41,672 bases of DNA from Candidatus Deferrimicrobium sp. GTDB taxonomy: Bacteria; Bacillota; Desulfitobacteriia; Desulfitobacteriales; JAJXUE01. The translations under genes were made by a program, and so were the position numbers. The stretch covers positions 1 through 41,672 of the forward strand of contig DASRWH010000322.1 of NCBI GenBank assembly GCA_035654715.1, written 5' to 3'. Of the stretch, positions 1,777-37,625 are shown piece after piece. The notes below the pieces were generated by a model, which did not search any database, was not told the origin of the DNA, and was given only the letters and a program-made list of their open reading frames with translations. The stretch's first letter is position 1. Each line of letters begins with the position of its first letter.

Positions 1777-1807
1777 AAAGGAAGTAAGCTTTTCGCTTAC
1801 TTCCTTT
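1777..1807. terminator. Hairpin shared by the convergent genes 430-1770 (+) and 1797-2015 (-)
   Basis: aaaggaagtaagc / gcttacttccttt with a 5-nt loop. The A-run upstream gives a T-run for the minus-strand transcript. Confidence 0.6.
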
Positions 1808-2015
1808 CACTCTCACTATCAACCTTTTTTGCACCATCTTTGATTTCCTCAATACTAGTTAATATGTCGTCAATCTCTATTCCTGTGTAATCAGAGTCGC
1901 CAAGGCACTTGCAACAATTGTCACAAATCTTTGACACATCCAAATCGCACATATTACATGCTCCACAATCAGTGCATTTCCGATCTTCTAATACACAATC
2001 CTTTATGTTGTCCAC
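1797..2015 (-). CDS. Cysteine-rich small protein (72 aa, 10 Cys in the first 38 residues, acidic tail), unknown function
   Basis: ORF with a GTG start. CTDCGAC, CNMC and CDNCCKC clusters. TGgTATAAT-like -10 about 25 nt upstream. The SD is poor (GGGGG abuts the GTG), so the start and translation are uncertain. Confidence 0.5.
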   Translation of the reverse strand: MDNIKDCVLEDRKCTDCGACNMCDLDVSKICDNCCKCLGDSDYTGIEIDDILTSIEEIKDGAKKVDSESERK

Positions 2016-2054
2016 CCCCGAGGTAATTTCAATATATTATACCAATTGTTTTAT

Positions 2055-2927
2055 TCAAAAGCCAATTGGAAGTTTTCCCACTAAGTCTTTGCCTGCTTTG
2101 TTAAATTGTAACTGTGAATAAATTTGATCCAAGTAATTTTTAGTATCAGCGTAACGATTTTGACTATTTAATATAACCACTACTACCTTACCGCAGTCCC
2201 AATCAGTAGAAGTAACTAGACATTGTCCTGCTTCGGTAGTTGTCCCGGTTTTTATTCCTTGAACCCCAGGATAAACCCCCAAAAATCTATTGGTATTTTC
2301 TAGTCTTACACTTTTAGTAGAGTTTCCACGCGTCCAGGTTATTTCCTTTGCAGAAGAACCAACAATATCTTTTATAACCGGGTCAGCCAATGCCGCTACT
2401 GCAATTGTAGCCATTTCTCTAGCAGTTGTTACATGCCCCGCCGCAGGTAGTCCATTAGGGTTTATAAATCGAGTCGTTTTTAACCCAAACTCCTGAGCCT
2501 GAGTATTCATCTCTGCAACAAACTTTTGGACGCTTCCACTAGAATACGCAGCTAGTCCCGTGGCAGCCTCATTGCTTGAGGCCAGCAATAAAGCATACAG
2601 AAGATTTTCTACACTGATAGAATCACCTGGAAGTAACCCCAGAGTAGCACTCTCTACCCCTTCTACTTCCTTACCAAGGATAACATTATCCGTAAGTTTG
2701 GATTTTTTAGCTATTAATAAAGCAGTCATTAGTTTAGTAGTACTGGCAGGAGCTAAAGTAGCATCAGCATTTTTTGCAAACAATGGTTTTCCCGTATTCA
2801 AATCAAGTATAAACACAGCCTCTCCGCTTTGAGCCTGGGATACAGGAGTGGCCTGAAGTGTTGATGCAAAAAGCAGAGTAAGTATTAACCCTAGGGCTAC
2901 TATTCTAACATATTTGAACAAACCCAA
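2055..2927 (-). CDS. D-alanyl-D-alanine carboxypeptidase (serine peptidase S11, low-MW PBP)
   Basis: Signal peptide. SxxK (ASTTK), SxN (SSNEA) and KTG (KTGTT) motifs in the correct order. The start is probably the TTG at 2921 (AAGGGG 7 nt upstream) rather than 2927. Confidence 0.9.
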   Translation of the reverse strand: MGLFKYVRIVALGLILTLLFASTLQATPVSQAQSGEAVFILDLNTGKPLFAKNADATLAPASTTKLMTALLIAKKSKLTDNVILGKEVEGVESATLGLLPGDSISVENLLYALLLASSNEAATGLAAYSSGSVQKFVAEMNTQAQEFGLKTTRFINPNGLPAAGHVTTAREMATIAVAALADPVIKDIVGSSAKEITWTRGNSTKSVRLENTNRFLGVYPGVQGIKTGTTTEAGQCLVTSTDWDCGKVVVVILNSQNRYADTKNYLDQIYSQLQFNKAGKDLVGKLPIGF

Positions 2928-2945
2928 AACCCCTTAACTTGTTAG

Positions 2946-3146
2946 TTATGCAACAAATAGGCTCTCTTGTGGATATGCTTCAAGTGACTTAATTACCGTT
3001 TGAAAGTTGCCGCCGTTTAGAATGATATTAATCGCCTTGCACCATAGCATACCGCTGTTAATTGATATATTTACTCTTCTAAGCTGGGTCTCTCTTCTCT
3101 TTATTACCTTCGCCAATTGTTCCTTTTGCTCTAAACTTAGAATCAT
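2946..3146 (-). CDS. Hypothetical 66-aa protein (orf66), no family recognised
   Basis: ATG with AGGAGG 8 nt upstream. Its stop lies 18 nt before the carboxypeptidase gene. The promoter is flanked by two LexA-type boxes. Confidence 0.6.
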   Translation of the reverse strand: MILSLEQKEQLAKVIKRRETQLRRVNISINSGMLWCKAINIILNGGNFQTVIKSLEAYPQESLFVA

Positions 3147-3163
3147 TTCTAACCCCTCCTATA

Positions 3164-3175
3164 GAACATCTGTTT
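3164..3175 (-). promoter_or_regulatory. LexA-type box GAACATCTGTTT, between the -10 and the SD of orf66
   Basis: Same GAAC-N4-GTTT form as the three boxes in the lexA/yneA control region. Confidence 0.65.
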
Positions 3176-3181
3176 GATAAT

Positions 3182-3210
3182 ATTCTATCATATCAAAGAG
3201 GGGCGAACAA
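3182..3210 (-). promoter_or_regulatory. SigA-type promoter of orf66: TTGTTC (3205-3210) - 17 nt - TGaTAGAAT (3182-3190)
   Basis: Read on the reverse complement. Extended -10 and 17-nt spacer. Confidence 0.55.
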
Positions 3211-3216
3211 GTGTTT
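3205..3216 (-). promoter_or_regulatory. LexA-type box GAACAAGTGTTT overlapping the -35 of orf66
   Basis: GAAC-N4-GTTT, 13 nt downstream of the MFS gene stop. Confidence 0.65.
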
Positions 3217-3228
3217 TATGGAAATAAT

Positions 3229-4461
3229 TTACTGCACATCAAGTTCTTGTCTTCGCTGAGCTATGTAAAAAGCGACGCATCCAAGGCCGCGCAATAGGGC
3301 CGAGACCACTAAAGCAACATATATGTTCGAAATATCCATTATTAAACTACCAACAAAGGGGGCTATGGTGGCTGAGACATTTATCATAGTATTATAATAA
3401 GCAACACAAGAAGTTCTAATACAATCCGGGGCCGTATCGAGCATGGCATTAAAAAGAATTAGCACTGTCCCGGCGGTAAAGAAGCCAGCAATTAGGTTAG
3501 TAGCGGCAAGTACCCATAGGTTAGGAGATAGTGCAGTGAGAATGGGGGTTAGTGCCATACCGAACGTGGCTAATACCAGTGCTTTATAATTACCCTTATC
3601 ACCAGCATACTTTCCCCACCAGTGGTAGGAAAGTATAGAGACAAGGGTTATGATTGCCGAGAAGAAACCGATCCAGGTATTATTTGCGCCCAGATTTTTA
3701 ACCTGATAAAGAGTAAACAGTGGCCAAGCCATTTGCCAACCAAAATAAAAAACCAAAGAGCTTGCCATGTACCTGAAAAATATCTTTTCATTAACGATAT
3801 CACGGAGGCTGCATACATCTTTTTCTGATGTACTAGAATGTTGCTCTTCTCCGTCTACATCCACCAGCTGAAGTAGCAGGTATATTTCGGCTAAGGCAAA
3901 GATAAAGGCTACAGCGAACATTATTTGGTAGCCCAATGGAGAAGGTAAATAATCTAGGAGAAATCCAGTGACCAAGGTTGGAATTAACCCAACCACACCG
4001 GTTAGTTTGTTGCGTTGTGCAAAGGCTTTACTTCTTAAATCAGATGGTATCAGTTTGCCGATCAAAGACTGCCAAGCCACAGTCCCAACGGCAGCCGGTA
4101 AGTTCATTAATCCCACTGCAATTACCAGCGAGACCGATCGGAGCGGTTGTGGCAAAAAAGGAACGCCAGCTATAACCAAGAAAAAGGTTCTGTAGGCAAA
4201 AAAAAGAATCGCCGTAAGGCGCTTTGTATTTGCAGATCTGTTTATCATCTTAGTACCCGGCAACATTGCGAATACACTTATTACAGCTGGCAAGGAGTTC
4301 AACATTGCAACCTCAAAATTGCTGGCTCCTAAGGCAAGGGCGAAGATCCCGAGAAACGGTTTAAAGGTATTATCTGCCAGGGACTGGGCCACACCATGAT
4401 AATTATTATATTTGATATTGTGTTGCCAAGTTTGTGACATTCTTCCACGTATTTCTTGCAT
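3229..4461 (-). CDS. MFS transporter
   Basis: 410 aa with about 12 hydrophobic helices and a central hydrophilic loop. Own promoter-like TTGATG-18-TATAAT at about 4485-4525. Confidence 0.85.
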   Translation of the reverse strand: MQEIRGRMSQTWQHNIKYNNYHGVAQSLADNTFKPFLGIFALALGASNFEVAMLNSLPAVISVFAMLPGTKMINRSANTKRLTAILFFAYRTFFLVIAGVPFLPQPLRSVSLVIAVGLMNLPAAVGTVAWQSLIGKLIPSDLRSKAFAQRNKLTGVVGLIPTLVTGFLLDYLPSPLGYQIMFAVAFIFALAEIYLLLQLVDVDGEEQHSSTSEKDVCSLRDIVNEKIFFRYMASSLVFYFGWQMAWPLFTLYQVKNLGANNTWIGFFSAIITLVSILSYHWWGKYAGDKGNYKALVLATFGMALTPILTALSPNLWVLAATNLIAGFFTAGTVLILFNAMLDTAPDCIRTSCVAYYNTMINVSATIAPFVGSLIMDISNIYVALVVSALLRGLGCVAFYIAQRRQELDVQ

Positions 4462-4525
4462 TGCTATTACACCAAATCCACAAATATTTCGACTAATAAA
4501 TTATACTACCATAGCTATTGATTCA

Positions 4526-5353
4526 TCAAGGGTTACCGTCCCAATACCGTAAAAAGTTATACGGATTAATCCATTTTCCTCTGGGTAATTCCATTCCAAA
4601 GTGCAAATGATCAGGAGTATTGATAGCATCACCCGTATGCCCAGTATATCCAAGCAGGGTTCCTCTTTTGACAGACATTCCAATCTTAAGGTCCGTACTT
4701 ATCTTGGATAGATGGGCGTAGTAATAGTAGATTCCATCTTGACCTCTGATACCGACCCTCTCTCCTCCAAGCCTATTCCAACCAAGTTGTTCAACTTTCC
4801 CATCACAAACAGAATATAGTCTTGTCCCTTCTTCTGCAAAAATGTCAGTACCCTCGTGACGCCTTTTGCCTCCTTCCCTGTCAGCACCCCAAGTATCCCT
4901 GTAATCTTGCGGATTTTTATATGGGAAGCTATAACTATTTGAAAACATACTTGATTTTGTTTGTAATAGGATTGTACGATTATAAATTTCTTCGGTAAGT
5001 TCTTTCGGATAGCCCAACTGCTTAATGGAAGTTCCAATGTCGCTGGAGTAAGGGGCCATTTTTACCGCCAATTTTACTAATTCTTCTGAACCAGGATACC
5101 AACCAATCAACTTTTTCTCCACTCGAATCTGTCCGATACCCGCTAATAGTTCCCATGGTAAATTGAACTGAGTTCCTAACTTTTGACAGTTTCGCACGAA
5201 AGATGCTGGAAGTTGTGCAAGTCTATCAACTGCCTCATTTTTATGCTGTGGTTCATGTATTAGAAACCAGTAACTTCCTCCGCTCATTACGATAATTACA
5301 AGAGCAATAACCACAGCTACGGGCCATTTTACGATTCTCATTATTCTAGCCAT
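4526..5353 (-). CDS. M23 family metallopeptidase (peptidoglycan endopeptidase) with N-terminal membrane anchor
   Basis: HxxxD (HEGTD) and HxH (HLHFG) LytM-type motifs. N-terminal TM helix. LPWELLAGIGQI segment typical of the N-terminal regions of such enzymes. Confidence 0.9.
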   Translation of the reverse strand: MARIMRIVKWPVAVVIALVIIVMSGGSYWFLIHEPQHKNEAVDRLAQLPASFVRNCQKLGTQFNLPWELLAGIGQIRVEKKLIGWYPGSEELVKLAVKMAPYSSDIGTSIKQLGYPKELTEEIYNRTILLQTKSSMFSNSYSFPYKNPQDYRDTWGADREGGKRRHEGTDIFAEEGTRLYSVCDGKVEQLGWNRLGGERVGIRGQDGIYYYYAHLSKISTDLKIGMSVKRGTLLGYTGHTGDAINTPDHLHFGMELPRGKWINPYNFLRYWDGNP

Positions 5354-5360
5354 TAATTCC

Positions 5361-5395
5361 CCTCCTATATACGAAGATATTCTGCATATAGGAGG
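5361..5395 (-). promoter_or_regulatory. SD-sequestering hairpin in the leader of the M23 peptidase gene
   Basis: In mRNA sense: CCUCCUAUAU - 15 nt - AUAUAGGAGG, then GGAAUUA AUG. Perfect 10-bp stem whose 3' arm is the Shine-Dalgarno sequence. Confidence 0.5.
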
Positions 5396-5468
5396 TTAAT
5401 GCAAATCAATAAGAGATTGGTACAAGAACATAAAAAGGGCAACCGCAAATTACAGCTACCCTATACTT

Positions 5469-5762
5469 TTAATTTTCCAGAGGTATTTTTAAAACCAGTC
5501 CGGGTCTAATCGTAGGATCGTTAAGATTGTTAACTTCTATTATATTATGGATAACCTTACGAGGATCCTCATTAGGTACATATTTGCAGGCAAGATTCCA
5601 GAGTGTGTCTCCCTCATGAATTAACACAGGTTGAAAGGTCTTATTCCCTGCCGCTTCAGTTGGACTTAAACTGCTAGAAACCAACAACACAATGGTAGTG
5701 AGCAGAATAACAGACAGAAATAATATCAAGTTCCGTGGATTCCATTTCCTTCTGGTTTTCAT
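5469..5762 (-). CDS. yneA: LysM-domain membrane protein, YneA-like SOS cell-division suppressor
   Basis: Divergent from lexA as in B. subtilis. N-terminal TM plus C-terminal LysM (HEGDTLWNLACKY...NLNDPTIRPGLVLKIP). Start re-placed at ATG 5762 (GGAGG 9 nt upstream), because the ORF-track extension to 5831 runs over the promoter and LexA boxes. Confidence 0.8.
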   Translation of the reverse strand: MKTRRKWNPRNLILFLSVILLTTIVLLVSSSLSPTEAAGNKTFQPVLIHEGDTLWNLACKYVPNEDPRKVIHNIIEVNNLNDPTIRPGLVLKIPLEN

Positions 5763-5779
5763 AGGTTGACACCTCCGAC

Positions 5780-5791
5780 AAACATTTGTTC
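5780..5791 (-). promoter_or_regulatory. LexA box (GAACAAATGTTT on the minus strand), 3 nt upstream of the yneA SD
   Basis: Read directly. GAAC-N4-GTTT form. Confidence 0.75.
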
Positions 5792-5802
5792 TTGTTGTAC
5801 TT

Positions 5803-5831
5803 AGAATACCAGAACAGATGTTTGTTGTCAA
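5803..5831 (-). promoter_or_regulatory. yneA promoter TTGACA (5826-5831) - 17 nt - TATTCT (5803-5808)
   Basis: Read on the reverse complement. The spacer contains LexA box 5812-5823. Confidence 0.6.
5812..5823. promoter_or_regulatory. LexA box GAACAGATGTTT inside the yneA promoter spacer
   Basis: Read directly. Confidence 0.75.
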
Positions 5832-5851
5832 AGGTTTTTTACACTTTTTTC

Positions 5852-5863
5852 GAACAGACGTTT
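5852..5863 (+). promoter_or_regulatory. LexA box GAACAGACGTTT overlapping the lexA -35
   Basis: CGAACAGACGTTTG. The lexA promoter is TTTGAA (5861-5866) - 17 nt - TGgTATAAT (5881-5889). Confidence 0.8.
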
Positions 5864-5924: not shown

Positions 5925-6542
5925 ATGTATGAAGATTTGAATTCCAGACAGATACAAATCTTAGATTTTATACGCAAAGAAATCAAACAAAAAGGTTATC
6001 CCCCCGCAGTTAGGGAAATTGGAGAAGCAGTTGGCCTAAGTTCCAGTAGTACTGTTCATAATCACTTGAATGTTTTAGAAGACAAAGGTTACATACGACG
6101 GGACCCCACCAAACCTAGAGCAATTGAGGTACTAATAGGTAACGATAATTCCATACCGAAAAAAGAACTAATTGATGTACCTATTGTTGGCCGTGTTACA
6201 GCAGGGCAACCTATTCTGGCGGTCGAAAATGTCGAAGATACTTTTCCATTACCTAAGGATTTTGTCCGTAATGAGAATGTGTTTATGCTTACGGTCCGTG
6301 GCGAAAGCATGATCGAAGCTGGAATTTTAGACGAAGACTATGTTTTGGTGCGTCAGCAGAACACTGCCCGGAACGGAGATATCATAGTTGCATTAATTGA
6401 TGATGAGGCAACTGTCAAGCGTTTCTTCAAAGAACGTGATCACATTCGCCTTCAACCAGAGAACCAATATATGGAGCCAATATTGGTTAAAGATGTTGTG
6501 GTTTTGGGCAAGGTAATTGGGGTATTTCGCAGACTTCACTAG
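5925..6542 (+). CDS. lexA: LexA repressor
   Basis: wHTH N-domain ([39 protein letters not shown]). Ala-Gly cleavage site (VTAGQP). Ser/Lys dyad context (GESM ... VKRF). Start at ATG 5925 (GGAGG 7 nt upstream), 10 codons inside the ORF-track start. Confidence 0.95.
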
Positions 6543-6641: not shown

Positions 6642-7736
6642 TTATAAATCGAAGGTTGTCTTAGAACGGTTTTTATCCGCGTGTCTTTCTATTGCTAGAT
6701 CAATCAACTCACTTAACAACTGGGAATAAGGTATTCCCGTTGCTTCCCATAACTTAGGATACATACTAATTTTAGTAAATCCAGGCAATGTATTTACTTC
6801 ATTGATATAAATTTTGCCCTCTGCTTTCGTAACAAAAAAGTCAACTCGCGACAACCCCGCACAATCTAGTGCTCGAAAAGCCTTTGCTGCAATCTCTTTG
6901 ATTTGTTCACACGCGGCTCCAGAAATCTCCGCTGGAATAATTAAGGCAGAATCACCATCGATATATTTAGCCTTATAATCATAAAACTCATTACAGGGTA
7001 CAATCTCCCCAAGAACGGATATCTTTGGTTCATCATTACCGAGAACTCCTACTTCGATTTCTCGGGCATCAATGAACTCTTCAACCACAATTCGTCTATC
7101 GTACTCGCAAGCCATGTTAATTGCATTGGTGAGTTCCTCGCGATTATGTGCTTTACTAATGCCAACGCTGGAACCCAAATTAGCGGGCTTAACAAAGCAT
7201 GGATAACCCAATTCTTTTTCAACAGAGCTTAGCACTTTTTCTTGATCCTTCTCCCACTCTCTACGCAGCAGACCAACATACCGAGCCTGAGGTAAACCTG
7301 CGGCGGCGAACACACTCTTCATTACTATTTTGTCCATACCAGCGGCAGAGCCGAGTACGCCCGCACCTACATAAGGGATATTAGCTAGTTCAAACAAACC
7401 CTGTACTGTTCCATCCTCACCATATGTACCGTGAAGTACGGGAATTATTACATCAATCTCTGCTAAATCCGCGCCATCACTAAGAGAAAGGAGTTTATTG
7501 GTATTCGGATCAGGAATCATTGTCGCAGGAATTGAATCGCCTTTGAAATCACCCTCTTCGAGAATCTTTGCAGGATCTGCTCCTAAGCGCCAGCTTCCTT
7601 GCTTGGTGATGCCAATGGGAACAATTTCATATTTTTCACGGTCCAAGGCATTTAGAATTGAATTTGCGGAATTGAGGGAAACCTCGTGTTCACCGGACCT
7701 TCCGCCAAACAAAACACCAACACGTAATTTTTTCAA
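6642..7736 (-). CDS. ddl: D-alanine--D-alanine ligase
   Basis: LKKLRVGVLFGGRSGEHEVS N-terminus and ATP-grasp motifs (GYPCFVKPANLGSSVG, EVNTLPGFT). The likely start is TTG 7736 (GGGGG 9 nt upstream). The ORF-track ATG at 7787 adds 17 atypical residues. Confidence 0.93.
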   Translation of the reverse strand: MKKLRVGVLFGGRSGEHEVSLNSANSILNALDREKYEIVPIGITKQGSWRLGADPAKILEEGDFKGDSIPATMIPDPNTNKLLSLSDGADLAEIDVIIPVLHGTYGEDGTVQGLFELANIPYVGAGVLGSAAGMDKIVMKSVFAAAGLPQARYVGLLRREWEKDQEKVLSSVEKELGYPCFVKPANLGSSVGISKAHNREELTNAINMACEYDRRIVVEEFIDAREIEVGVLGNDEPKISVLGEIVPCNEFYDYKAKYIDGDSALIIPAEISGAACEQIKEIAAKAFRALDCAGLSRVDFFVTKAEGKIYINEVNTLPGFTKISMYPKLWEATGIPYSQLLSELIDLAIERHADKNRSKTTFDL

Positions 7737-7959
7737 ACAACTCGCCCCCAGATTTATTATGCAGTCAAGCTTATCTAAGTATATCATTACTATACTCCAT
7801 TGCTTAAGAAAATGTCTCCTCCTTTATAATAAAAATATAATTTTAATTCCATACATTCTATTACACCTCTTCCCTTAGAATATTCTGAAAATGGAGGTTT
7901 TTTTGTATAAGAAGTGGAATAGTTTAACTTAGAGAATATTTAACTAGGAGGAAGTGTGA

Positions 7960-8425: not shown

Positions 8426-8465
8426 CAAACCCTCCAGATATTTTGAGTCTGGAGGGTTTGTTTTA
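8426..8465. terminator. Bidirectional terminator
   Basis: 13-bp perfect stem caaaccctccaga / tctggagggtttg followed by tttt. Confidence 0.75.
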
Positions 8466-8945
8466 TTGGCAATACATATATCGAAAGAATTCTCCCATCA
8501 GGCCCCAGGTTGAAAGCTTTTTAGCTACCTCCGAAGACAGACTTCTCATTTCCAACCTTGAATTTGTTAATGCTGAAGTGGGAAGAGGGTCATTAGGTGC
8601 CAATTGTACAGCTCTGAGCAATAACTCTTGACCCTCAATCTGTAGATTAGCATACCCGTGGAAATGTGATAACAAATACCCTACGACCCAACAAAAATCA
8701 ACATTATCTTTATAAACTGGTAGAGATATTGTAAATAAAGTCCGGAAACATTTCACCCAATCCCGGGATCCGTCATCATTTGTTAGATATCCCGGTTCAT
8801 TAAACATGAACCAATAAAGAAACATAGTTCGCATCACAGTCTCCAGATCGTCGCAACCAGCGTCAATTCGTTCCTCCAAAAGGTAAAGTGCCTCTGTAAT
8901 TCCGTTTTGTTCTTCTATATAACTAATTTCAGTTAATTCTTTCAA
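8463..8945 (-). CDS. Hypothetical 160-aa cytoplasmic protein, no family recognised
   Basis: Clean ORF bounded by a terminator. Helical, Trp/Phe-rich composition. Confidence 0.55.
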   Translation of the reverse strand: MKELTEISYIEEQNGITEALYLLEERIDAGCDDLETVMRTMFLYWFMFNEPGYLTNDDGSRDWVKCFRTLFTISLPVYKDNVDFCWVVGYLLSHFHGYANLQIEGQELLLRAVQLAPNDPLPTSALTNSRLEMRSLSSEVAKKLSTWGLMGEFFRYMYCQ

Positions 8946-13953: not shown

Positions 13954-14292
13954 CTACGGATGGGTTGGGTTTGCAATTAAGAGTACGACCAGACCCAGGA
14001 AAATATATATGCTAAGTACTATGCTTTGAGAAAACCATGAACCCCTGCCGAAACCCGGAACCCAACGACGCATTTGCAAAAAATTGAACCCAGTTCCTAA
14101 CAGAAGCATTGCCAGAATAAGCACTGCCAGAGCGCCAATGTTTTTGGTCACCCCTGCAATTAAGCTAAGTGTTAACATAGCTAAAGCAAAGATCCACTTG
14201 ACTGTCTGTAAGCCGAATAGCAAATAGTACTGCACTAACTCCTTTTTTGTTCTAGGACCCGTGGACCTTATTGTGTAATACAAGACACGCAC
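13954..14292 (-). CDS. Small membrane protein (3 TM), unknown function
   Basis: Hydrophobic ORF. GGAGGTG overlaps the GTG at 14292, so TTG 14283 is the more likely start. Confidence 0.6.
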   Translation of the reverse strand: MRVLYYTIRSTGPRTKKELVQYYLLFGLQTVKWIFALAMLTLSLIAGVTKNIGALAVLILAMLLLGTGFNFLQMRRWVPGFGRGSWFSQSIVLSIYIFLGLVVLLIANPTHP

Positions 14293-15799: not shown

Positions 15800-16459
15800 T
15801 TACTTGCCATTGCGATATTTGTACATCATTTCTTTCATCATGTCCGCTATTGTTGGAGGTGTGTAAGTAATAGCGTTGGCACCTGCCTGGATTGTTTCTA
15901 ATACGCTCTCTTCTGTGGGCCCCCCGGTTGCGATAATGGGCAAATTGGGAAACATTTTTCGAATCTCATGCACCACCTGCGGGGTTTGACTTGAAGCCGA
16001 TACGTTCACTACATGCGCGCCATTTTCGATTCTTGACCCTACATCGGAATTGAGTGCAGTAATAATAATGGGTATATCTATAGTTTGACACACTTCTCGC
16101 ACGGTTTCATCACAAGTAGGGGCATTGAGTACAACCGCTAAGGCCCCCTGAAATTCAGCATGCAATGCCAGATTAACTACTTTCTTACCTTGTGTGGTGC
16201 CACCACCAACCCCCATCATAACCGGCTTATCCGCAACAAAGGTGATGGACTGAGTAATTACCGGTTGAGGTGTAAAAGGATACACCGCCATAATAGCGTC
16301 AGCGTCGTTGTTGCGAATTGCCACTACATCGGTGGTAAAGATAATGGAGCGAATCAACTTCCCATGAATACGGATTCCGGTGGCATGTTTGATACTCTTG
16401 GGAACTTCAAGGTACTTTTTACGCAAGGGTAATGAAATTTCCGGGCTCAAGTCCTCCAT
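15800..16459 (-). CDS. Conserved-looking hypothetical protein, probably a beta/alpha-barrel (phosphate-binding barrel-like)
   Basis: 219 aa. GAGGTGG SD. Alternating beta/alpha pattern with GVGGGTT and PIIATGGPTEESV...GANAI glycine-rich loops. Function not recognised. Confidence 0.65.
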   Translation of the reverse strand: MEDLSPEISLPLRKKYLEVPKSIKHATGIRIHGKLIRSIIFTTDVVAIRNNDADAIMAVYPFTPQPVITQSITFVADKPVMMGVGGGTTQGKKVVNLALHAEFQGALAVVLNAPTCDETVREVCQTIDIPIIITALNSDVGSRIENGAHVVNVSASSQTPQVVHEIRKMFPNLPIIATGGPTEESVLETIQAGANAITYTPPTIADMMKEMMYKYRNGK

Positions 16460-29069: not shown

Positions 29070-32000
29070 TTACATAGTGTATGTAACCAAATGGTTACTA
29101 CCATCATCAACTAACTCCACAGCACCAACCTTTATCGGCTTTCCATCAACTTGGATTCCAGTAATCCCAGTATTTTTGCCGTTAGGGTTAATAACTTGGA
29201 AAGTATATTGGGAAGTTTTGTACCTATATTCTATAGTGAATTCCGGCCAAGTACTGGGAATACAGGGCTCTAAGTGCAGTTTATTTCCTTCAAGACAAAA
29301 ACCCAGTATCCCTTCCAAACCAGCCTGATACATCCACCCTGCTGCACCTGTATACCAGGACCACCCTCCCCTTCCTACATGGGGAGGAATTGCATACACA
29401 TCAGCTGTCATAACATATGGTTCAACCTTATAATATGCCACCTCTGTTTCTGTACGGGCATGGTTTATCGGATTTAACATTTGGAACAATTCTGCTGCCT
29501 TGTCCCCTTCCCCCATTTTGGCCAGGGCCAGTACTGACCAAATAGCACCATGGGTATACTGACCACCATTTTCCCTAACCCCTGGAACATATCCCTTGAT
29601 ATATCCTGGGTCAGGTTTTGAGGTATCAAAGGGCGGAGTTAATAACAGCAGAATACCTTCGTCCTTGCGAATTAAATAATGCTCCAAGGCTAGCATCGCA
29701 TCCTCTGCCCTCGTTGGCTTAGCTGCACCAGACAGTACCGCCCAGGATTGGGCAAGGGCATCAATCTGGCACTCTTGGTTTCGGGCAGAACCCATTGGGG
29801 AGCCATCATCAAAGTAAGCCCTGCGATACCACCCACCATCCCAACCGTGTAGCTCGAGGCTCTCCTGCAGCTTACTACATACCTCTGCATAATGTTTAGT
29901 GAGTTCCATGTCTCCTTGAACCGCACAGATTTTTGAGAAACGTTGTAAAGTAAGATAAATAAACCAACCCAACCATACGCTTTCCCCAGTTCCCCTTACC
30001 CCTACACGACTAAAGCCATCATTCCAATCCCCGGAACCGATCAGGGGTAAACCATGTTCCCCGAATTTGAGTCCCCTTTCTATAGCCTTTAGACAGTGCT
30101 CATAGACCGTACCGTCTTGTTCAGATACCCTTGGTACGGAATAACGTTCATCTGTATCTTCTGATAGCGGGTCGTCCTCCAGATACTTTGCTCGCTCCTT
30201 TAAAATTCCATAGTCTTGAGTGTGCTCAATATAATCTGCAGTTACGAATGGCAGCCACAACAAATCATCTGAAAATTTAGTGCGTATTCCCTTACTTCCT
30301 TCCGCATGCCACCAGTGCTGCACGTCACCCTCTAGAAATTGGTGTTCACAATGGAGCAGGATTTGTTCTCTTGTCCACTGCGGTGCGGAGGGAGTCAGGG
30401 CCATGACATCTTGGAGTTGATCCCTAAATCCAAAGGCGCCCCCGGATTGATAAAAAGCAGAACGTGCCCAAATTCTACATACCACTGTTTGGTACAACAG
30501 CCATCGGTTGAGGAGAATATCCATACTTTTGTCCGGAGTTCGTACTTGCAAATTACCCAGGAAACCTGTCCAGAACTCCTCAACTTCGGCAAAGGCAGCA
30601 GTCACTTGATCCTCTCGTTGGAAACGCTGCAACAGTTGTTCAACCTCTGCAAGGCTTTTCCCTTCACCCAATAGGAAACAGACGGTTTTACCTTCTCCTG
30701 GAAGCAAATTAATATCAATTTGGATCGCTGCGCAAGGGTCAAAACCAGCACCAACAGAATTTGATAGCGTACTCCTTGATAAAGCTACCGGTCTTTGTGC
30801 GTTCCCGTTACGGCCGATAAATTCAGTACGGTCTGCAGTGTAGGACTTGATCTCTGCACCAGTACAACTGAGGAAAATACGCCTTTGAGCAAACTCTTGC
30901 TGATATACATTAGCTGCTAGCAGGCAATTATTCTCCGAGTCAAACTCACTTACCAGATAAGGAGCGGTTAATTCTCGTGCAACGCCCATCACCAGCTCAG
31001 CATAGTAAAACCCAGTCAATGTGCGCGTTTCTTTGCTTAGGTTAGTCAAGGTAAGTTGCAAAATCTTTATCGGTTCCTCTTTGGGGACAAACAACAGGAG
31101 TTCCTGCCTAAGGCTGAGACTCTCATGGATAAACTTGCTGTATCCTTGGCCATGACGAACCGTATAAGGCTCTTGTTGTTTAATACTTCCAGGTATTGGC
31201 GACCAAAACGAGCCTGATTGTTCATCTCGCAAGAAAATAATTTCCCCTGACTGGTCAATTACCGGGTCATTTGACCAGGGCGTTAGCTTATTTTCCCGAC
31301 TGTTGGTCGACCAGGTATAGCCCCCTCCAGATTCAGTTATCAGGAAACCAAAGTGTTTGTTAGCAATCACATTGCTCCATGGAAGAGGGGTTTGGATATT
31401 CGGCCTTACTAAGATGACGTATTCTTTGCCGTCTTTACTAAACCCGCCATAGCCGTTGTAATACTCAAGTTCTTCTGTAGCAGGTAAGACAGCTGCACTT
31501 ACGCTGTCCTGGCCCTCAACTTGGAGTTCCATTGTCTGCCCCAAATCTTTGGGTGCGAGGAGCAGTTCTTTGCCTAGCTTGCGGAATTGCATGCTACAAG
31601 ACCCACCTTCCGCGGAGAACACTTGCCTTGCAACCGAAAATAGCAAATTAACATCTTCCAAGGGCATATGCTCTTTTTGGAGCAGGAAAATTCCTCCAGG
31701 CCTATTGAGCATTTCCCTTGCGTGACCCACAGCAACCAAGTCCTTTAAACTGTCGTGTAAATCTTGTAAGTACCCACTCTTGTCCTCATTAAGAATAACA
31801 AGGTCAATCACTAAGCCTTTTATATGCCAGTACTCGTGTATGGTTAATAACTGCCTTACAAAGTCTAGGTCATCTATTTTAGAGATTCTAACCAGAATCA
31901 TTGGCAAGTCACCCGAAATGGAGTAAGGCCACAGAGAAGCTTGACCCTTGCAATTGGACTTAATAACCTCCTCGTATTCACGCCGACAAGGGCTAAGATA

Positions 32001-35000
32001 TAGTAAATTCCCGCCCAAAGATAGTGCATCGTTAGCTTGATTAGAAGACAGTCCCAAATGTCTCAGTTCCATTTGACTGTAAGTCCAGGCAAGTTCAAAG
32101 ACGCGCTCAATCGAAGCAGGATCTCTATATTTCTCTGCCAACCTGATAACCTCTTCTTTACTTTCCCCTATACCCACAGAGAAGGAAACCTGAACGACTT
32201 GACCAGGTCGCAGACGTACTCTTTGACGCAGACTTAAAATTGGATCAAGGACAGCGCCTGTTGTGCCTGACAACGGGTGGTTGGGTTCAAGTGCTCTGGG
32301 ATTCGTCAAATTTCTGCCCCGTCCCACGAACTTATAACGGTCTGTTTCGTACTGTAGGGCACCGATGCTTTCTCCTTGTATCGCCACGGTTTGCATAATC
32401 CATTTTCGAGCCTGGTCGTCTCTCCTTGGACGCCGTGATGCTAACAAGGATTGATGGGTAAATTCCGTTTCTATAAACAGATTACCAAAGGCCGGGTGAG
32501 CCAAGTCCTCACTAGGGCGGGCTAGTACGGCCTCAAAATAACTTGTAATTTCAATTGTTCTGTCGTACTGGCTATTGTTGGTGAGGCTAATTCGACGAAT
32601 CTCCACTTGATCTTCTGGCGAAACAATGACTTCCGTTTTTGTCCTAATATTACCGTCTTTACGGTAGTATTCAGCCCGATCTGGGGCATAAGTGACTTTA
32701 TAATCCTCACCTGAATATCCACAAGGTTGATGGGCGGCTGACCACGTGGCTCCAGAATTCAGATTTTGAATATAAAAATACATACCCCAACTGTCTTTAG
32801 TTACATCTTCTCGCCATCTGGATATGCTCAACTCTGCGAATTTGCTGTAGCCGGAGCCAGAATTAGTCAGCATAACAGCATATTGACCGTTTGAGAGAAA
32901 GTGAGTGACGGGAACACTAGTTTCGGCTGTGGCTAGTGTTATAACCCGTTTTTCCAAGGCAGGTGCTTTAACAGCTATGCCAATCTCGCGTTCTTCAGGT
33001 TGAGGAGTGACAACTGCTGTTGCTGGCACACGTTCTTTCAGCAGCAATTCAGTAGATTGCACAAGGGGGAGGGAATGAAAGCGCTTTTGCATTATATTAT
33101 CAAACAATACATTCGTGATGGATATAAAACTCATCCCTTGGTGATGTGCCATGAAACTTTGAACTAAACGAAAGCCGCCTCCAAGTGCCCTGTCCTGAGC
33201 ATAGTCCGCTGCTTCGTATAAACCGTATAAACCACCATAGCCAAGGTTCTGCATATTCCTAATGTTAGCTAAAGCGGTTTTGGGTGCAACCATTAGAGCT
33301 AGAAAGGTTGCATAAGGTGCAACCACCAACTCTTGCAACAGTCCGCGTTTTAAACCAAGTCCGGGCACACCAAAGGCCTTATACTGATAGTTTAGTTGGG
33401 CATCAAAGGTATAGAAACCGGACTCGGAAATTCCCCAAGGAGTTTTACGTTGTGCGCCGTACCACTCTTGAGCCGCAACTACAGATTTGTAAGTTTCGTC
33501 TAAAATAGTGCCCTGATAGTTACGCATGACTAAAAGAGGCATCAAGAACTCAAACATGGTTCCGCTCCAGGAAACTAGACCCCTCTTCCCTCTGACAACT
33601 GTGAGAGAACGCCCCAGTCTAAACCAGTGACTCTTAGCGAGATCACCTTTTGCAATGGCAATAAAGCTTGCCTGACGGGCTTCAGAAGCTAACAAATCAT
33701 AATAAGATCTATCTAAGGTTTGTTCCCCTATCCGATACCCAATAGAAAACAGTTGCCGATGGGTATCAAATAAGGGTAGAAAGTCTGTTGACATTGCTTT
33801 GGATGATAGTTCGGCACGGAGTTCCCTAATTTCAGTTTTTAAGCGACGAACTTCAATTAAAGCCTGGGGCTGTATAGAAAACTTTGCAAGATAAGCTTCC
33901 AATTCACTAAGGCTCAAGGTAGATATTTGCTCTGAACTTAATCCCTTATTTTCTACCCTGCTATGCAAAAGTTCAGAAAAGAGAGTATTGAACTCCTGCA
34001 AGAAATCAGCTAGCATTGCCAGCAAATGTTTCCCCCAGTATGAGTCCGCTGACGGTGAAGTTGCAAAAACATTCGATCCTTCGATTAGAAGATTGTGCCA
34101 AGCCAATAGATCTATATTGGTTGCTTGCAACATCTGGTCACAGGACCGAGCAAAAGAATCAAACTCTTCAGGAACAGGTGTGTTTAACTCTTCTAACAAA
34201 AGATTATATGTATCCTTTAAGCCATTGACCTGGTTGGAATCGATTACAGGCCTAGCTAGATATTCCTTTAACCCAGCCTCTAAGGTGAGAAAATACACCA
34301 CTAGATTACCGCTATCTACAGTTGATACATACAAAGGGTGCAGAGGTTTCAAGGACTCTGTGTCATACCAATTGTACAGGTGACCTTTCCAGTTTTCTAA
34401 ACTGTTAATTGAATTGAGAGTATGCCTTATCCGGAGGAGGAGTCGTGTCGTGGATATATAACCTAGATCGCGAGCTGCCTGATTAGCCACCAGTGCTAAT
34501 CCTATATTAGTTGGAGAAGTTCTATGGGCTACTCCATTCGGAGGTTCCACTTGCAAGTTATCTGGAGGTAACCAATTATCCCTCTCTGTTACGAAGTCCT
34601 CAAAAAAAGCCCAAATTTTACGAGCCCACCCTCGTAGTTCGGCCTTTTCGGTCTGGGTTAATTCCTCTTGCCCCAAGGATTGAGGTCTGCTTATAGATGC
34701 AGCAATCCAAGGAGAGAGAAGCCATAAGGTAATAATCGGGACTAGCCGCAATGTTCCTTGTGGATTGATTTCATAGGCAAGCAGTGATAGTAAAACTGTC
34801 GTAGTTAAAGCAGGAGTCATGATCTTGCAACTGTCCAAGAATCCAGCACTTAGCCTGCGTTCCGTATCCGCTGCAGCTTCCCATTCGAGCATTTTACGCC
34901 TACTAAGGGTTTGTCGGTACAAGCTACGTACGATTGCATCGGCATGAGTATATGCCTGGTAGGGTAGAAAGCAAAACGTAAACACAAATTGTAGAAGTGT

Positions 35001-37625
35001 ATCTACACTCTCAGTGGAGGAAGTTTTTGTCTTCGGGTTTAGGGTACTGTTGATAACTCCAAGTACACACGGCAATAGTAAAACGAGAAGCGCAATGCAA
35101 AGCCATACCCAACTGCTACCAGGGAAAACAGCACTAAATACGATTAAAACAAGCAAGGCAGGTGCTTCTAGACTTCTGCGCAGATTATCTCCTATTTTCC
35201 AGCGAGATATTGCTGGGAGTCGCTTAAATAACCATGGGGTAATCTGCCAATCTCCTCGTACCCATCGGTGAATTCTTCGCATATAAGCATGCACCTTGCT
35301 AGGGTACCCATCGATCAATTCTATATCTGTAGCCAAACCAGTTCTTGCATATATCCCTTCGATTAGGTCGTGGCTTAAAATAGTATTCTGCGGGAAATTA
35401 TCTCCGGTAACTTTATGAAAAACTTCTACATCATAAATACCTTTTCCAGTAAAGTTACCCTCTCCGAACAGGTCTTGATAAACGTCAGATACAGCAGCGG
35501 TATATGGGTCAACCCCCACTCTACCTGCAAAAACTTTAGCAAAAAAGGACGCATGTGCGCTTTCTACCGAAACTGCAATACGTGGCTGAATAATCCCATA
35601 TCCATCTATAACTCTTGTCCCCTCACTATTTAAACTAGGGGACTGTAAAGGATGGGCAATGGTCCCGATCAGTTTCTTTGCAGATTCTCGCGGTAATTGC
35701 GTGTCTGCATCTAATGTAATTATGTATTTAATCTCAGACAGGACTTCAGCGCGTCCTATCATAACATCTATACTATGTTCCGAGTTGTTGCTTAACAACC
35801 GGTTAAACTCTACTAATTTCCCCCTTTTGCGCTCCCATCCCATCCAAACCCCTTCTGCTGGATTCCATAACCTCTTGCGGTTATACAGATGGAACTGTAT
35901 TGAGTCGTATTTGTCATTCAACCTGTTTATTTCTTCTACTGCCGTTGTTATTACTGCTTCATCTTCGGGCATTACTTCTTCTGGGGCATCTATAAAGTCT
36001 CCAAGAATAGCAAAATGCAAGTTGCTATCTTGATTGGCTAAATAGTACACTTCAATCTGTTCAGTGAGTTCCCGCACCCTAGCTGCGCTTGATAACAAAG
36101 TGGGAATAACAACCATAGTCTTCAAATCTGGAGGTATACCTTCGGCTAAATCGAGCTTTGGTAAAAACGATGGTTTAAATAGCCTCGTTACCACCCAATT
36201 GACAAGGGTTAAGGCCAAGCTACTCATTGGTATAAGCAGAACCACCCCCAAAACGACTAATGCTGGGGGTTTAGTTGTCTGTATTCTTGCTGCATAGACA
36301 AGGCCCACACACATCAGCAACACCGTTAAGCTTGCAATTCCTCCTAGGTAAGCTAGTACTGGTTTACTGCAGATGAATTTCTTGATTCTGATGCAATACT
36401 TGCGTAAGGCACCCCATTCTTGTTCTAATTCACTTTGCAACACCTGCATGCCCTTGTCTAACAGGAAGTAGCCGACATGAGTTTGATTGTGTACTTCGGA
36501 GATACTGGCAAGTTCAAGTACCTTCTTGGCAATCACAATCTCGGACACAGCAAAATGTCGGGACAACCTCTCTACCTTATGTCGGTATTGGTCCCGTGAC
36601 TCGAAATCCATTTTGCAATAAACTTGGGCAGGATCCTGTTGAAGTATCTGTTCAACTGTACTTATTTGTTCAAAGAATTTAGGCCAGTCTTCCTCACCTG
36701 TAAAGCGTAAGCTAGTTATGGCATGTCCCATTGTCACTTGAAGCATAGCTTGATTTTGATGCTCTAACTTTGCCAAAGCTTCTAGACTACTATCGGTTTT
36801 ACTGGCTTGTTTATCTAGCCAGGATAGAACTGGCCCTGCATCCTGGCCGAAGTCTCTAAGACGCCTCAATAAGCGCTCGGCGAATACAGTCGAAAAATCT
36901 TCTGGGAGTACAGTCGAATTTAGTAGTTGATCCCACTTATCAGCTTCATGTTCAGTTTCTAAAAAGGGGAATAGCCAGCGTTCAGCTGCTTTTCTCTGAT
37001 CTTGTATATAAATTACCCGTTCAACTAGCCTACGAACATTCTCCAGCAGTGCCATTCTCAACATAATTGGAATTGCCCAAATTTCCCCGCTGGACAGTGG
37101 TGCTACAGTCTGATATGCCTCCACAAATTCCTTTATAGCGTCCAATTGTAAGTGACTATCTGTATGCTCAATTAATTCCACCATTAGTGCCAATACTCTC
37201 GGATAACCATGAAACGGGCCATCAGACAATCTAGGCAATTGCTTCTCATATCTTCTTGGCAGCTGTTCCGCAATTTCCGAACCTAAATCTTTTAACAAGT
37301 AGTAATTATCCAAAAACCACTCAGCAGCTGGAACTATGTCGTTAGTTTCTTTGAGATACGTACTGATATAGGCTTGGGCACGACTTAAAAACTCCATGTT
37401 GTCTGCTACATGTGGTAACATGGAACGTTTAAAGGTACCTGTTGCAGATTGCAGATGATTTCTCGCAATCTCCTTGCTGTGCTGAACCAACTCTTCTCTA
37501 TTAAGTAAAATGTCCCTTAGTGGTTTATGCGTAAAAACTTGATTTTTTGCTAATTTCATAATTATTTCGTACACCTCTATGTAGTTTGAACCTTTAAAAA
37601 TTATAACCACTTCTGACATTCTCAT
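29070..37625 (-). CDS. Cyclic beta-1,2-glucan synthase-type multidomain enzyme (GT84 + cyclization region + GH94 phosphorylase), 2851 aa
   Basis: TM helices near aa 420-480 and 800-960. GT domain with LDADTQ (DxD at 35703-35711) and RWVRGDWQ (35244-35267). NWLPPDN...SPTNIGL alpha-barrel region (~aa 1000-1560). GH94-like C-terminus with GSGDWNDG (30015-30038). Size and order match proteobacterial Cgs/NdvB/ChvB. The start may be ATG 37559. Confidence 0.85.
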   Translation of the reverse strand: MRMSEVVIIFKGSNYIEVYEIIMKLAKNQVFTHKPLRDILLNREELVQHSKEIARNHLQSATGTFKRSMLPHVADNMEFLSRAQAYISTYLKETNDIVPAAEWFLDNYYLLKDLGSEIAEQLPRRYEKQLPRLSDGPFHGYPRVLALMVELIEHTDSHLQLDAIKEFVEAYQTVAPLSSGEIWAIPIMLRMALLENVRRLVERVIYIQDQRKAAERWLFPFLETEHEADKWDQLLNSTVLPEDFSTVFAERLLRRLRDFGQDAGPVLSWLDKQASKTDSSLEALAKLEHQNQAMLQVTMGHAITSLRFTGEEDWPKFFEQISTVEQILQQDPAQVYCKMDFESRDQYRHKVERLSRHFAVSEIVIAKKVLELASISEVHNQTHVGYFLLDKGMQVLQSELEQEWGALRKYCIRIKKFICSKPVLAYLGGIASLTVLLMCVGLVYAARIQTTKPPALVVLGVVLLIPMSSLALTLVNWVVTRLFKPSFLPKLDLAEGIPPDLKTMVVIPTLLSSAARVRELTEQIEVYYLANQDSNLHFAILGDFIDAPEEVMPEDEAVITTAVEEINRLNDKYDSIQFHLYNRKRLWNPAEGVWMGWERKRGKLVEFNRLLSNNSEHSIDVMIGRAEVLSEIKYIITLDADTQLPRESAKKLIGTIAHPLQSPSLNSEGTRVIDGYGIIQPRIAVSVESAHASFFAKVFAGRVGVDPYTAAVSDVYQDLFGEGNFTGKGIYDVEVFHKVTGDNFPQNTILSHDLIEGIYARTGLATDIELIDGYPSKVHAYMRRIHRWVRGDWQITPWLFKRLPAISRWKIGDNLRRSLEAPALLVLIVFSAVFPGSSWVWLCIALLVLLLPCVLGVINSTLNPKTKTSSTESVDTLLQFVFTFCFLPYQAYTHADAIVRSLYRQTLSRRKMLEWEAAADTERRLSAGFLDSCKIMTPALTTTVLLSLLAYEINPQGTLRLVPIITLWLLSPWIAASISRPQSLGQEELTQTEKAELRGWARKIWAFFEDFVTERDNWLPPDNLQVEPPNGVAHRTSPTNIGLALVANQAARDLGYISTTRLLLRIRHTLNSINSLENWKGHLYNWYDTESLKPLHPLYVSTVDSGNLVVYFLTLEAGLKEYLARPVIDSNQVNGLKDTYNLLLEELNTPVPEEFDSFARSCDQMLQATNIDLLAWHNLLIEGSNVFATSPSADSYWGKHLLAMLADFLQEFNTLFSELLHSRVENKGLSSEQISTLSLSELEAYLAKFSIQPQALIEVRRLKTEIRELRAELSSKAMSTDFLPLFDTHRQLFSIGYRIGEQTLDRSYYDLLASEARQASFIAIAKGDLAKSHWFRLGRSLTVVRGKRGLVSWSGTMFEFLMPLLVMRNYQGTILDETYKSVVAAQEWYGAQRKTPWGISESGFYTFDAQLNYQYKAFGVPGLGLKRGLLQELVVAPYATFLALMVAPKTALANIRNMQNLGYGGLYGLYEAADYAQDRALGGGFRLVQSFMAHHQGMSFISITNVLFDNIMQKRFHSLPLVQSTELLLKERVPATAVVTPQPEEREIGIAVKAPALEKRVITLATAETSVPVTHFLSNGQYAVMLTNSGSGYSKFAELSISRWREDVTKDSWGMYFYIQNLNSGATWSAAHQPCGYSGEDYKVTYAPDRAEYYRKDGNIRTKTEVIVSPEDQVEIRRISLTNNSQYDRTIEITSYFEAVLARPSEDLAHPAFGNLFIETEFTHQSLLASRRPRRDDQARKWIMQTVAIQGESIGALQYETDRYKFVGRGRNLTNPRALEPNHPLSGTTGAVLDPILSLRQRVRLRPGQVVQVSFSVGIGESKEEVIRLAEKYRDPASIERVFELAWTYSQMELRHLGLSSNQANDALSLGGNLLYLSPCRREYEEVIKSNCKGQASLWPYSISGDLPMILVRISKIDDLDFVRQLLTIHEYWHIKGLVIDLVILNEDKSGYLQDLHDSLKDLVAVGHAREMLNRPGGIFLLQKEHMPLEDVNLLFSVARQVFSAEGGSCSMQFRKLGKELLLAPKDLGQTMELQVEGQDSVSAAVLPATEELEYYNGYGGFSKDGKEYVILVRPNIQTPLPWSNVIANKHFGFLITESGGGYTWSTNSRENKLTPWSNDPVIDQSGEIIFLRDEQSGSFWSPIPGSIKQQEPYTVRHGQGYSKFIHESLSLRQELLLFVPKEEPIKILQLTLTNLSKETRTLTGFYYAELVMGVARELTAPYLVSEFDSENNCLLAANVYQQEFAQRRIFLSCTGAEIKSYTADRTEFIGRNGNAQRPVALSRSTLSNSVGAGFDPCAAIQIDINLLPGEGKTVCFLLGEGKSLAEVEQLLQRFQREDQVTAAFAEVEEFWTGFLGNLQVRTPDKSMDILLNRWLLYQTVVCRIWARSAFYQSGGAFGFRDQLQDVMALTPSAPQWTREQILLHCEHQFLEGDVQHWWHAEGSKGIRTKFSDDLLWLPFVTADYIEHTQDYGILKERAKYLEDDPLSEDTDERYSVPRVSEQDGTVYEHCLKAIERGLKFGEHGLPLIGSGDWNDGFSRVGVRGTGESVWLGWFIYLTLQRFSKICAVQGDMELTKHYAEVCSKLQESLELHGWDGGWYRRAYFDDGSPMGSARNQECQIDALAQSWAVLSGAAKPTRAEDAMLALEHYLIRKDEGILLLLTPPFDTSKPDPGYIKGYVPGVRENGGQYTHGAIWSVLALAKMGEGDKAAELFQMLNPINHARTETEVAYYKVEPYVMTADVYAIPPHVGRGGWSWYTGAAGWMYQAGLEGILGFCLEGNKLHLEPCIPSTWPEFTIEYRYKTSQYTFQVINPNGKNTGITGIQVDGKPIKVGAVELVDDGSNHLVTYTM

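Follow-up and report, generated by a model that had tools for sequence, protein, structure and literature searches.

A candidate LexA-controlled operon for an S11 peptidase and two small proteins, with its own pair of predicted operators near lexA, in Candidatus Deferrimicrobium

Introduction

Paired GAAC-N4-GTTT boxes are a textbook means of repression by LexA. The locus described here raises the question of what a separate pair of such boxes does 2.6 kb away from lexA. We analyzed a 41,672-nt contig of Candidatus Deferrimicrobium sp. (Bacillota; assembly GCA_035654715.1, contig DASRWH010000322.1), the whole of which we call the window. Two LexA-type 12-mers, at 3164-3175 and 3205-3216, lie ahead of three genes on its minus strand: orf66, encoding a protein of 66 amino acids; dac, encoding a low-molecular-weight penicillin-binding protein (PBP) of family S11; and cys, a small cysteine-rich open reading frame (ORF). 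An initial annotation of this DNA, made from its letters alone, had pointed out the two boxes and proposed that a peptidoglycan-trimming module belongs to the SOS regulon. As far as sequence analysis reaches, two LexA-type operators very probably control the orf66-dac-cys operon.

Results

Two LexA-type boxes on one promoter

The 82-nt gap between the orf66 start codon (ATG, 3146-3144) and the stop codon of the upstream transporter gene (3229) holds the whole promoter region. Both 12-mers are present at the positions given above, and they bracket a minus-strand promoter, TTGTTC-17-TGaTAGAAT, just as the initial annotation had described. One box overlaps the -35, since TTGTTC is the final six bases of the distal box, AAACACTTGTTC. 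On the minus strand the -10 is followed by six bases, the proximal box AAACAGATGTTC, TAT, the Shine-Dalgarno sequence (SD) AGGAGGGG and the ATG. The proximal box therefore sits between the -10 and the SD and ends 3 nt ahead of the latter, in agreement with the annotated layout. The promoter is of the extended -10 type and was missed by a consensus promoter scan because its -35 matches the consensus at only three of six positions. The transcription start is an inferred position rather than a mapped one; relative to it, both boxes appear to be placed where bound LexA would repress.

We counted five copies of the motif GAACANNYGTTT in the window, where dinucleotide-preserving shuffles predict 0.29, and none of 100 such shuffles reached that number. 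All five copies fall either at the lexA/yneA control region or at orf66. The looser GAACNNNNGTTY gave eight matches against 2.96 expected. The estimate of 1.3 chance occurrences in the initial annotation was thus conservative by comparison with the shuffled expectation.

We scored sites with a 14-nt weight matrix built from nine lexA-yneA boxes of three related loci (L003, L006 and L008), with the window and all orf66 sites excluded. Applied to both strands of the window, the matrix returned as its top five sites the three lexA/yneA boxes (20.3, 19.4 and 19.3 bits) and the two orf66 boxes (18.7 and 16.7 bits). The sixth site scored 12.7 bits, so the orf66 boxes are set apart from the window background, a separation on which the initial annotation had made its proposal depend. 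In every related locus, sites of at least 16 bits were confined to the lexA-yneA region and to the region upstream of orf66. Both sites in the window have the GAAC-N4-GTT(C/T) dyad of a LexA operator, overlap a promoter or transcription start and are conserved at orthologous positions, and the same motif stands at the genome's own lexA promoter.

Conservation of the boxes in related loci

Relatives were found by tracing orthologs of the S11 protein (Dac) to their contigs, by profile search and by a metagenome scan (L018 and L019). The traced contigs share the order lexA <-> yneA-like - M23 - orf66 - S11 - Cys-rich ORF, where the double arrow marks divergent transcription, with Dac identity down to about 50%. 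The order orf66-dac-cys is held in all relatives. A mobile-element or phage origin was ruled out, as the locus belongs to a conserved chromosomal core, miaB-mutS-mutL-miaA-hfq-...-hflX-...-ddl-lexA.

Promoter regions were aligned for ten lineages whose Orf66 proteins are 56-98% identical. All 12 nucleotides of the distal box are invariant across the ten, as is the extended -10 (TGnTAnAAT), and the SD is also kept. The proximal box never departs from its AAAC and TGTTC half-sites but has a variable center (AGAT, AAAT, ACGT, ATAT, ACAT, GAAT), as expected for N4. The 17-nt spacer between the -35 and the -10 has no conservation in this alignment. Measured from start to start, the two boxes lie 40-42 bp apart in 10 of 11 lineages; in the remaining lineage the distance is 46 bp. 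A further locus, L002, is cut and retains the proximal box. The boxes accompany orf66 whether or not the transporter gene is present. Retention of the boxes in relatives that keep the gene order, which the initial annotation had named as a check on its reading, was found in all ten lineages. The features of the locus are collected in Table 1.

Table 1. Features of the lexA-orf66 locus, with coordinates in the window; aa, amino acids; pI, isoelectric point.
Feature	Position	Strand	Description
Proximal LexA-type box	3164-3175		GAACATCTGTTT on plus strand, AAACAGATGTTC on gene strand; about +1 to +12; 18.7 bits
Distal LexA-type (Cheo-type) box	3205-3216		GAACAAGTGTTT on plus strand, AAACACTTGTTC on gene strand; 16.7 bits
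Sigma-A-type orf66 promoter	3182-3210	-	-35 TTGTTC 3210-3205; 17-nt spacer; extended -10 TGaTAGAAT 3190-3182
orf66 Shine-Dalgarno sequence	3153-3160	-	AGGAGGGG; read from sequence, kept in alignment of relatives
orf66	2946-3146	-	66 aa, basic, pI 9.7; 3-4 predicted helices
dac (S11 low-molecular-weight PBP)	2055-2927	-	290 aa; TTG start; PF00768 5.3e-53
cys (Cys-rich acidic ORF)	1797-2015	-	72 aa; 9 Cys; pI 4.2
Intrinsic terminator	1777-1807	-	13-bp stem and T-run; operon end; common to convergent plus-strand gene
Major facilitator superfamily (MFS) transporter	3229-4461	-	Lineage-specific insertion between M23 and orf66; outside the module
M23 metallopeptidase	4526-5353	-	PF01551 2.2e-21; membrane anchor; HEGTD166-170; HLH249-251
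Terminator-like hairpin after yneA	5436-5462	-	Separates yneA from M23
yneA-like gene	5469-5762	-	N-terminal transmembrane segment and LysM PF01476; divergent from lexA
Three LexA-type boxes (5780-5791, 5812-5823, 5852-5863)	5780-5863		lexA/yneA divergent control region; 19.3-20.3 bits
lexA	5925-6542	+	205 aa from second ATG; length agrees with relatives

The repressor and its own control region

LexA is intact: it matches PF01726 (4.8e-26) and PF00717 (2.8e-36) and has the DNA-binding domain, the Ala93-Gly94 cleavage site, Ser128 and Lys165. The three boxes in its control region overlap both the lexA and the yneA promoters. Three boxes at the lexA promoter have been reported for Bacillus subtilis and Clostridium thermocellum (PMC8457756), and GAAC-N4-GTTT is the usual form of the clostridial operator (PMC4234289). 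The divergent gene encodes a small protein with a transmembrane segment and a LysM domain under LexA-type boxes, which is the configuration of YneA. Its score against the YneA model PRK14125, 52.0 bits, is under the equivalog cutoff of 60, so "YneA-like" is the safe name. In L006 and L008, as in the window, comparable hairpins with T-runs follow yneA.

On its other side lexA is adjoined convergently by ddl (6642-7787, minus strand), which encodes a D-Ala-D-Ala ligase; this position is held in at least 12 related loci. The gene for a D-Ala-D-Ala-making enzyme is thus a neighbor of one for a D-Ala-D-Ala-cleaving enzyme. No box was seen for ddl.

The operon and the S11 peptidase

The S11 gene starts 18 nt after orf66, as previously annotated, and the gap between dac and cys is 39 nt; no terminator precedes the one at 1807-1777.

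The S11 protein has intact catalytic motifs (STTK62-65, SSN117-119 and KTG226-228) and an N-terminal hydrophobic signal or anchor segment. It has no PF07943, the PBP5-type C-terminal domain found in DacA, DacC and DacF, and ends at 290 amino acids. It resembles Escherichia coli PBP7 (PbpG), which shares the S11 motifs SxxK, SxN and KTG, is about 290-310 amino acids long and has no PBP5 C-terminal domain. Its best NCBIfam match is the PbpG DD-endopeptidase model; unlike PbpG proper, however, it scores far below every NCBIfam equivalog cutoff. We predict that it is a DD-carboxy- or DD-endopeptidase, and the peptidoglycan-trimming role suggested earlier for the module containing it is plausible.

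The end of dac contains a promoter-like site, TTGGCT-18-TATAAT with a TG (2065-2036, minus strand), a short distance ahead of the Cys-rich ORF. TGGTATAAT, a part of this site, recurs in L001, L008 and L011/L018 and not in L002, L003, L006 or L013. There is no LexA box at 2036-2065.

Orf66, a small protein of a narrow clade

Homologs of Orf66 are always 66 amino acids long, and all end in an invariant PQE..F.A pattern (PQE-x-x-F-V/S/M-A). One could speculate that this hydrophobic-Ala tail is a protease recognition signal. AlphaFold2 gave a confident model of three to four helices (predicted local distance difference test score, pLDDT, 82.9) for which there was no fold match in the PDB (best Foldseek E = 2.8). 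Nor did the sequence match Pfam, NCBIfam or PDB entries. The absence of a recognized family, noted in the initial annotation, thus holds in sequence and fold searches alike, and the structural modeling that it had recommended produced a helical protein with no fold relative. A PHROG match to "HTH DNA binding protein" (HTH, helix-turn-helix) had E = 0.2 and was rejected as a basis for naming. Orf66 may be a cytoplasmic helical protein.

A word-index search with orf66 alone returned a single match, 98% identical; the orphan look of the gene was removed by tracing Dac orthologs. The family forms ten 90%-identity clusters among 5.8 billion proteins. A full HMMER search with the orf66 profile found three 50%-identity representatives among 1.84 billion proteins, with a fourth match proving to be a spurious repeat protein. 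When GTDB representative genomes were scanned with the orf66 alignment, only two metagenome-assembled genomes (MAGs) came up, identical to loci already in our comparison set. We conclude that orf66 is a genuine gene whose distribution is limited to a narrow clade. Two of its homologs, P0001 (L001 1341-1586) and P0125 (L015 352-597), are annotated as 81 amino acids. In these calls the start is placed so far upstream that the ORF runs across the -10 and the proximal operator; the conserved start gives 66.

The Cys-rich family and its association with lexA

The Cys-rich ORF is retained in all relatives. It had been described as a 10-Cys mini-ORF; the actual count is nine. Its cysteines are arranged as C-x6-C-x2-C-x2-C-x2-C-x7-C-x2-C-[C]-x-C, followed by EIDDIL. 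Family-wide, eight cysteines are invariant, in the pattern C-x6-C-x2-C-x2-C-x2-C-x7-C-x2-C-x2-C within 31 residues. Scanning metagenomes with the Cys-rich alignment turned up at least 392 relatives, and the best 80 loci plus L017 (81 in all) were compared with the window proteins by tblastn. Relatives occur in gut, rumen and bioreactor metagenomes, in members of the Christensenellales and "Clostridiales" and in Bacillota MAGs, where all are named "hypothetical protein". The family matches no Pfam (even at E = 10), NCBIfam or PHROG family.

The N-terminal motif V-L-x-D-R-x-C-I-D-C-G-x-C resembles the cluster-binding segment of clostridial 2[4Fe-4S] ferredoxins (1fca, 1fdn), and there are two CxxCxxC runs. 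The match to 1fca is weak (E = 0.038) and covers the first motif only. Unlike those ferredoxins, the Cys-rich protein has eight cysteines within 31 residues and CxxCxxCxxC in place of CxxCxxCxxxCP, with no proline and no Pfam Fer4 match, and we rejected membership in the ferredoxin family. Its AlphaFold model was poor (pLDDT 52), as would be expected if the fold depends on metal, and unfit for a fold search. Our hypothesis is that this acidic protein of 8-9 Cys probably acts in the cytoplasm as a factor that binds metal or Fe-S, with Zn(Cys)4 sites being just as possible.

Among 67 informative cys loci, 45 have lexA in the same locus, mostly divergent and in four recurring architectures. The most frequent is a direct lexA <-> cys pair (24 of the 81 loci), followed by lexA <-> M23 - dac - cys (9) and lexA <-> yneA - cys (8). 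The arrangements lexA <-> yneA - M23 - dac - cys and lexA <-> yneA - M23 - orf66 - dac - cys, the window type (with the MFS gene in some lineages only), were each found once. Two loci have cys and lexA on the same strand, in that order, and six are cut contigs still carrying dac, yneA or M23. No lexA was present in the available sequence of 16 loci (13 with at least 3 kb upstream, 3 with 0.7-3 kb), and 14 loci were too short to judge. Of 18 distinct loci of the direct lexA <-> cys type, 17 have a box of at least 14 bits in the 200 nt ahead of cys. This wide conservation of the Cys-rich ORF as a partner of lexA goes beyond what the initial annotation had described.

Two further arrangements were observed. 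In ten loci with cys away from lexA (L021, L033, L038, L045, L046, L065, L075, L079, L092 and L093), it has a strong sigma-A-like promoter. In L080 (5992-6898) and L082 (1693-2587), the two loci with cys and then lexA on one strand, a GAACAGACGTTT box lies between the genes, which could form a cys-lexA operon.

Neighboring genes and the extent of the module

The M23 protein has both metal-ligand motifs of its family, HxxxD and HxH. The matrix scan found no LexA box upstream of its gene in the window or in window-type relatives. M23 is directly divergent from lexA in L017-type relatives, and in loci of the M23-dac-cys type a single box lies between lexA and M23, with none ahead of dac. Because M23-dac-cys stands directly divergent from lexA in distant relatives, these three genes form a conserved lexA-linked set. 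The MFS gene has a promoter-like site of its own, TTGATG-18-TATAAT, at 4529-4500. It is present in the window, L001, L011/L012 and L018 and absent from L003, L006, L008, L013 and L019.

The initial annotation had gone further and treated the entire minus-strand array, 1797-5863, as one cluster wired to DNA damage. That proposal survives in part. The boxes of the orf66/S11/Cys-rich operon speak for it; the terminator after yneA, the box-less M23 gene and the MFS insertion speak against it.

Other genes of the window

An ORF of 2851 amino acids (29070-37625, minus strand) combines a GH94 catalytic domain and two stretches of GH94 supersandwich with a glucoamylase-like domain. Its product is similar to cyclic beta-1,2-glucan synthases, an unusual find in a core region of a Bacillota chromosome. 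Three minus-strand ORFs, at 8463-8945, 13954-14292 and 15800-16459 (160, 112 and 219 amino acids), had no Pfam match at E <= 1e-5. At the position of the first of these, L006 and L008 have an unannotated ORF of similar length.

Discussion

In our judgment the cell's own LexA is likely to use the two 12-mers, which are of the Bacillus/Clostridium GAAC-N4-GTT(C/T) type, as operators for repressing a damage-inducible operon. It is from the motif, its position and conservation, the synteny and the enzyme motifs that we infer LexA binding, damage induction and a physiological role. A LexA dimer on the distal box would occlude the -35, a second dimer on the proximal box would cover the transcription start, and the two would keep the orf66-S11-Cys-rich operon silent down to its terminator. 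DNA damage would lead to RecA-stimulated self-cleavage of LexA and to derepression of the operon together with yneA. The exported S11 enzyme might then cut D-Ala-D-Ala stems or cross-links and, with YneA, might reshape septal wall synthesis during division arrest or recovery.

The relatives suggest how this arrangement could have arisen. Originally cys, and in one branch M23-dac-cys, may have been transcribed from the lexA-divergent promoter, sharing the lexA box. In the clade of the window, yneA with its terminator, plus the MFS insertion in some lineages, would have separated dac-cys from the lexA-divergent region. The new gene orf66 would have arrived with a dedicated two-box promoter, keeping dac-cys under LexA control. 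L043, which has yneA-M23-dac-cys without orf66 and without the second box pair, fits as an intermediate in this history.

It is possible, if doubtful, that the sites are true LexA operators but that selection acts on the Cys-rich protein, as the ancestral partner of lexA, with S11 and Orf66 as passengers. The module would then carry a cytoplasmic metal or Fe-S protein acting on division, RecA/LexA or redox, not a peptidoglycan program. The distribution of the family favors this explanation, since in 24 loci it is cys by itself that stands directly divergent from lexA and in 8 it follows yneA, whereas dac and M23 occur in a subset only and orf66 in one narrow clade. So do its eight invariant cysteines and, weakly, its resemblance to the ferredoxin cluster motif. 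However, M23-dac-cys and orf66-dac-cys are stable over wide divergence, with their order kept at 40-50% Dac identity, and dac retains every catalytic motif. In addition, cys is without boxes wherever it lies away from lexA, and in the lineage of the window it may own a separate promoter.

It is improbable that the conserved blocks have nothing to do with LexA and instead reflect promoter architecture or the binding of a different regulator. In that case the distal block would consist of the -35 and an element upstream of it, and the proximal block would belong to the initially transcribed sequence or the leader. The distal box does hold the -35, and conservation does run about 8 nt beyond it. 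Yet a -35 requires only TTG-like bases, not 12 invariant ones, and the variable positions of the proximal block are exactly the N4 center. Both blocks also fit a matrix made from the lexA boxes of other genomes, at 16.7-18.7 bits and far above background, and in Bacillus and Clostridium this dyad has been proven to work as a LexA operator (PMC4234289, PMC8457756). That the two matches are mere coincidence with no regulatory role we regard as very remote: the shortness of the core and three further GAAC-N4-GTTY matches inside window genes speak for it, but five copies against 0.29 expected, two of them within 53 bp on one promoter, and the retention of both boxes in ten lineages with diverged spacers contradict it.

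Several observations nevertheless weigh against LexA control of the operon, or against parts of the scheme built on it. The -35 of orf66 is weak. Conservation does not stop at the distal box but continues for about 8 nt upstream (TTCCAYAAAA), and promoter constraint could explain part of that box's conservation. Ahead of the most divergent orf66 homolog (P0131, in L016), AAACAAAAATAAAG stands where the proximal box was expected, and that box is absent; the contig breaks off 40 nt before the gene, leaving the rest of that promoter unseen. The motif was calibrated on lexA/yneA alone, recA, uvrA/B and dinB lying outside the window. None of the 13 loci with cys away from lexA has a box in the 200 nt ahead of that gene (best score 8.8 bits), and LexA control of the cys family is therefore frequent, not universal. 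Where cys adjoins lexA, the shared box may mainly serve lexA autoregulation, and in the window the promoter-like site inside dac could express cys independently.

Among the closest known systems to the one proposed here is lexA/yneA-yneB-ynzC of B. subtilis, with its Cheo boxes (GAAC-N4-GTTC). The dyad is the same, three boxes lie between lexA and a divergent gene for a LysM and transmembrane protein, the boxes overlap the -35, -10 or start, and the LexA domain layout and cleavage residues are alike. Unlike in B. subtilis, no yneB or ynzC follows yneA in the window, where M23, (MFS), orf66, S11 and cys are found instead; there is also a second two-box promoter 2.6 kb from lexA, and the boxes are consistently of the asymmetric form GAAC...GTTT. 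DNA affinity purification sequencing of C. thermocellum LexA_1449 (PMC8457756) likewise gave three sites ahead of lexA, along with a YneA-like gene in divergent orientation. In Clostridioides difficile, in silico work and surface plasmon resonance gave GAAC-N4-GTTT, and a box is predicted before a "putative cell wall hydrolase" in some ribotypes (PMC4234289). Neither of these clostridial regulon papers (PMC8457756, PMC4234289) lists an S11 PBP, Orf66 or the Cys-rich protein as a LexA target. The proposed targets in the window are conserved across lineages and not specific to single strains. Our literature search found no description of LexA control over an S11 PBP, Orf66 or the Cys-rich family, and to our knowledge S11 PBPs have not been reported as LexA targets.

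There is precedent in another phylum for SOS control of peptidoglycan enzymes. Rv2719c (ChiZ) of Mycobacterium tuberculosis is an SOS-induced LysM cell-wall hydrolase that blocks division. Like the proposed module, it is wall-active, beside lexA and damage-induced; it differs in that its enzyme class is neither S11 nor M23, its LexA motif is another one and it is a single gene. The lexA-divergent Rv2719c is cited in PMC3998124, and links between the SOS response and the envelope are a current topic, as in the work on mraZ (PMC3998124) and on Caulobacter HigX (PMC13384398).

The proposed mechanism is canonical Firmicute LexA repression, and the novelty is in the regulon members: an exported PBP-type peptidase of family S11 and two small proteins with no described family, all retained near lexA in a wide range of uncultured Bacillota. 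If LexA control is confirmed, hydrolysis of peptidoglycan stems or cross-links would join YneA in the Gram-positive SOS output. The locus would also be an example of preserved regulon membership, in which an operon is cut off from the lexA-divergent promoter by inserted genes and a terminator, and a new operator-bearing promoter appears.

For the Cys-rich mini-protein, present in hundreds of metagenome contigs, confirmation would provide a first functional handle. We tentatively raise the possibility that the 8-Cys protein is a widespread, unrecognized clostridial SOS effector: an ancestral lexA-divergent gene product of Christensenellales-like and related Bacillota, metal- or Fe-S-dependent, that recruited M23, S11, YneA and Orf66. 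Such a cytoplasmic factor could control division or modulate RecA/LexA, and recruitment of the other genes in some lineages would have given rise to a damage-inducible wall-remodeling program. If it is shown to be an SOS effector, the lexA-linked Cys-rich family would be of greater interest than the operator pair itself.

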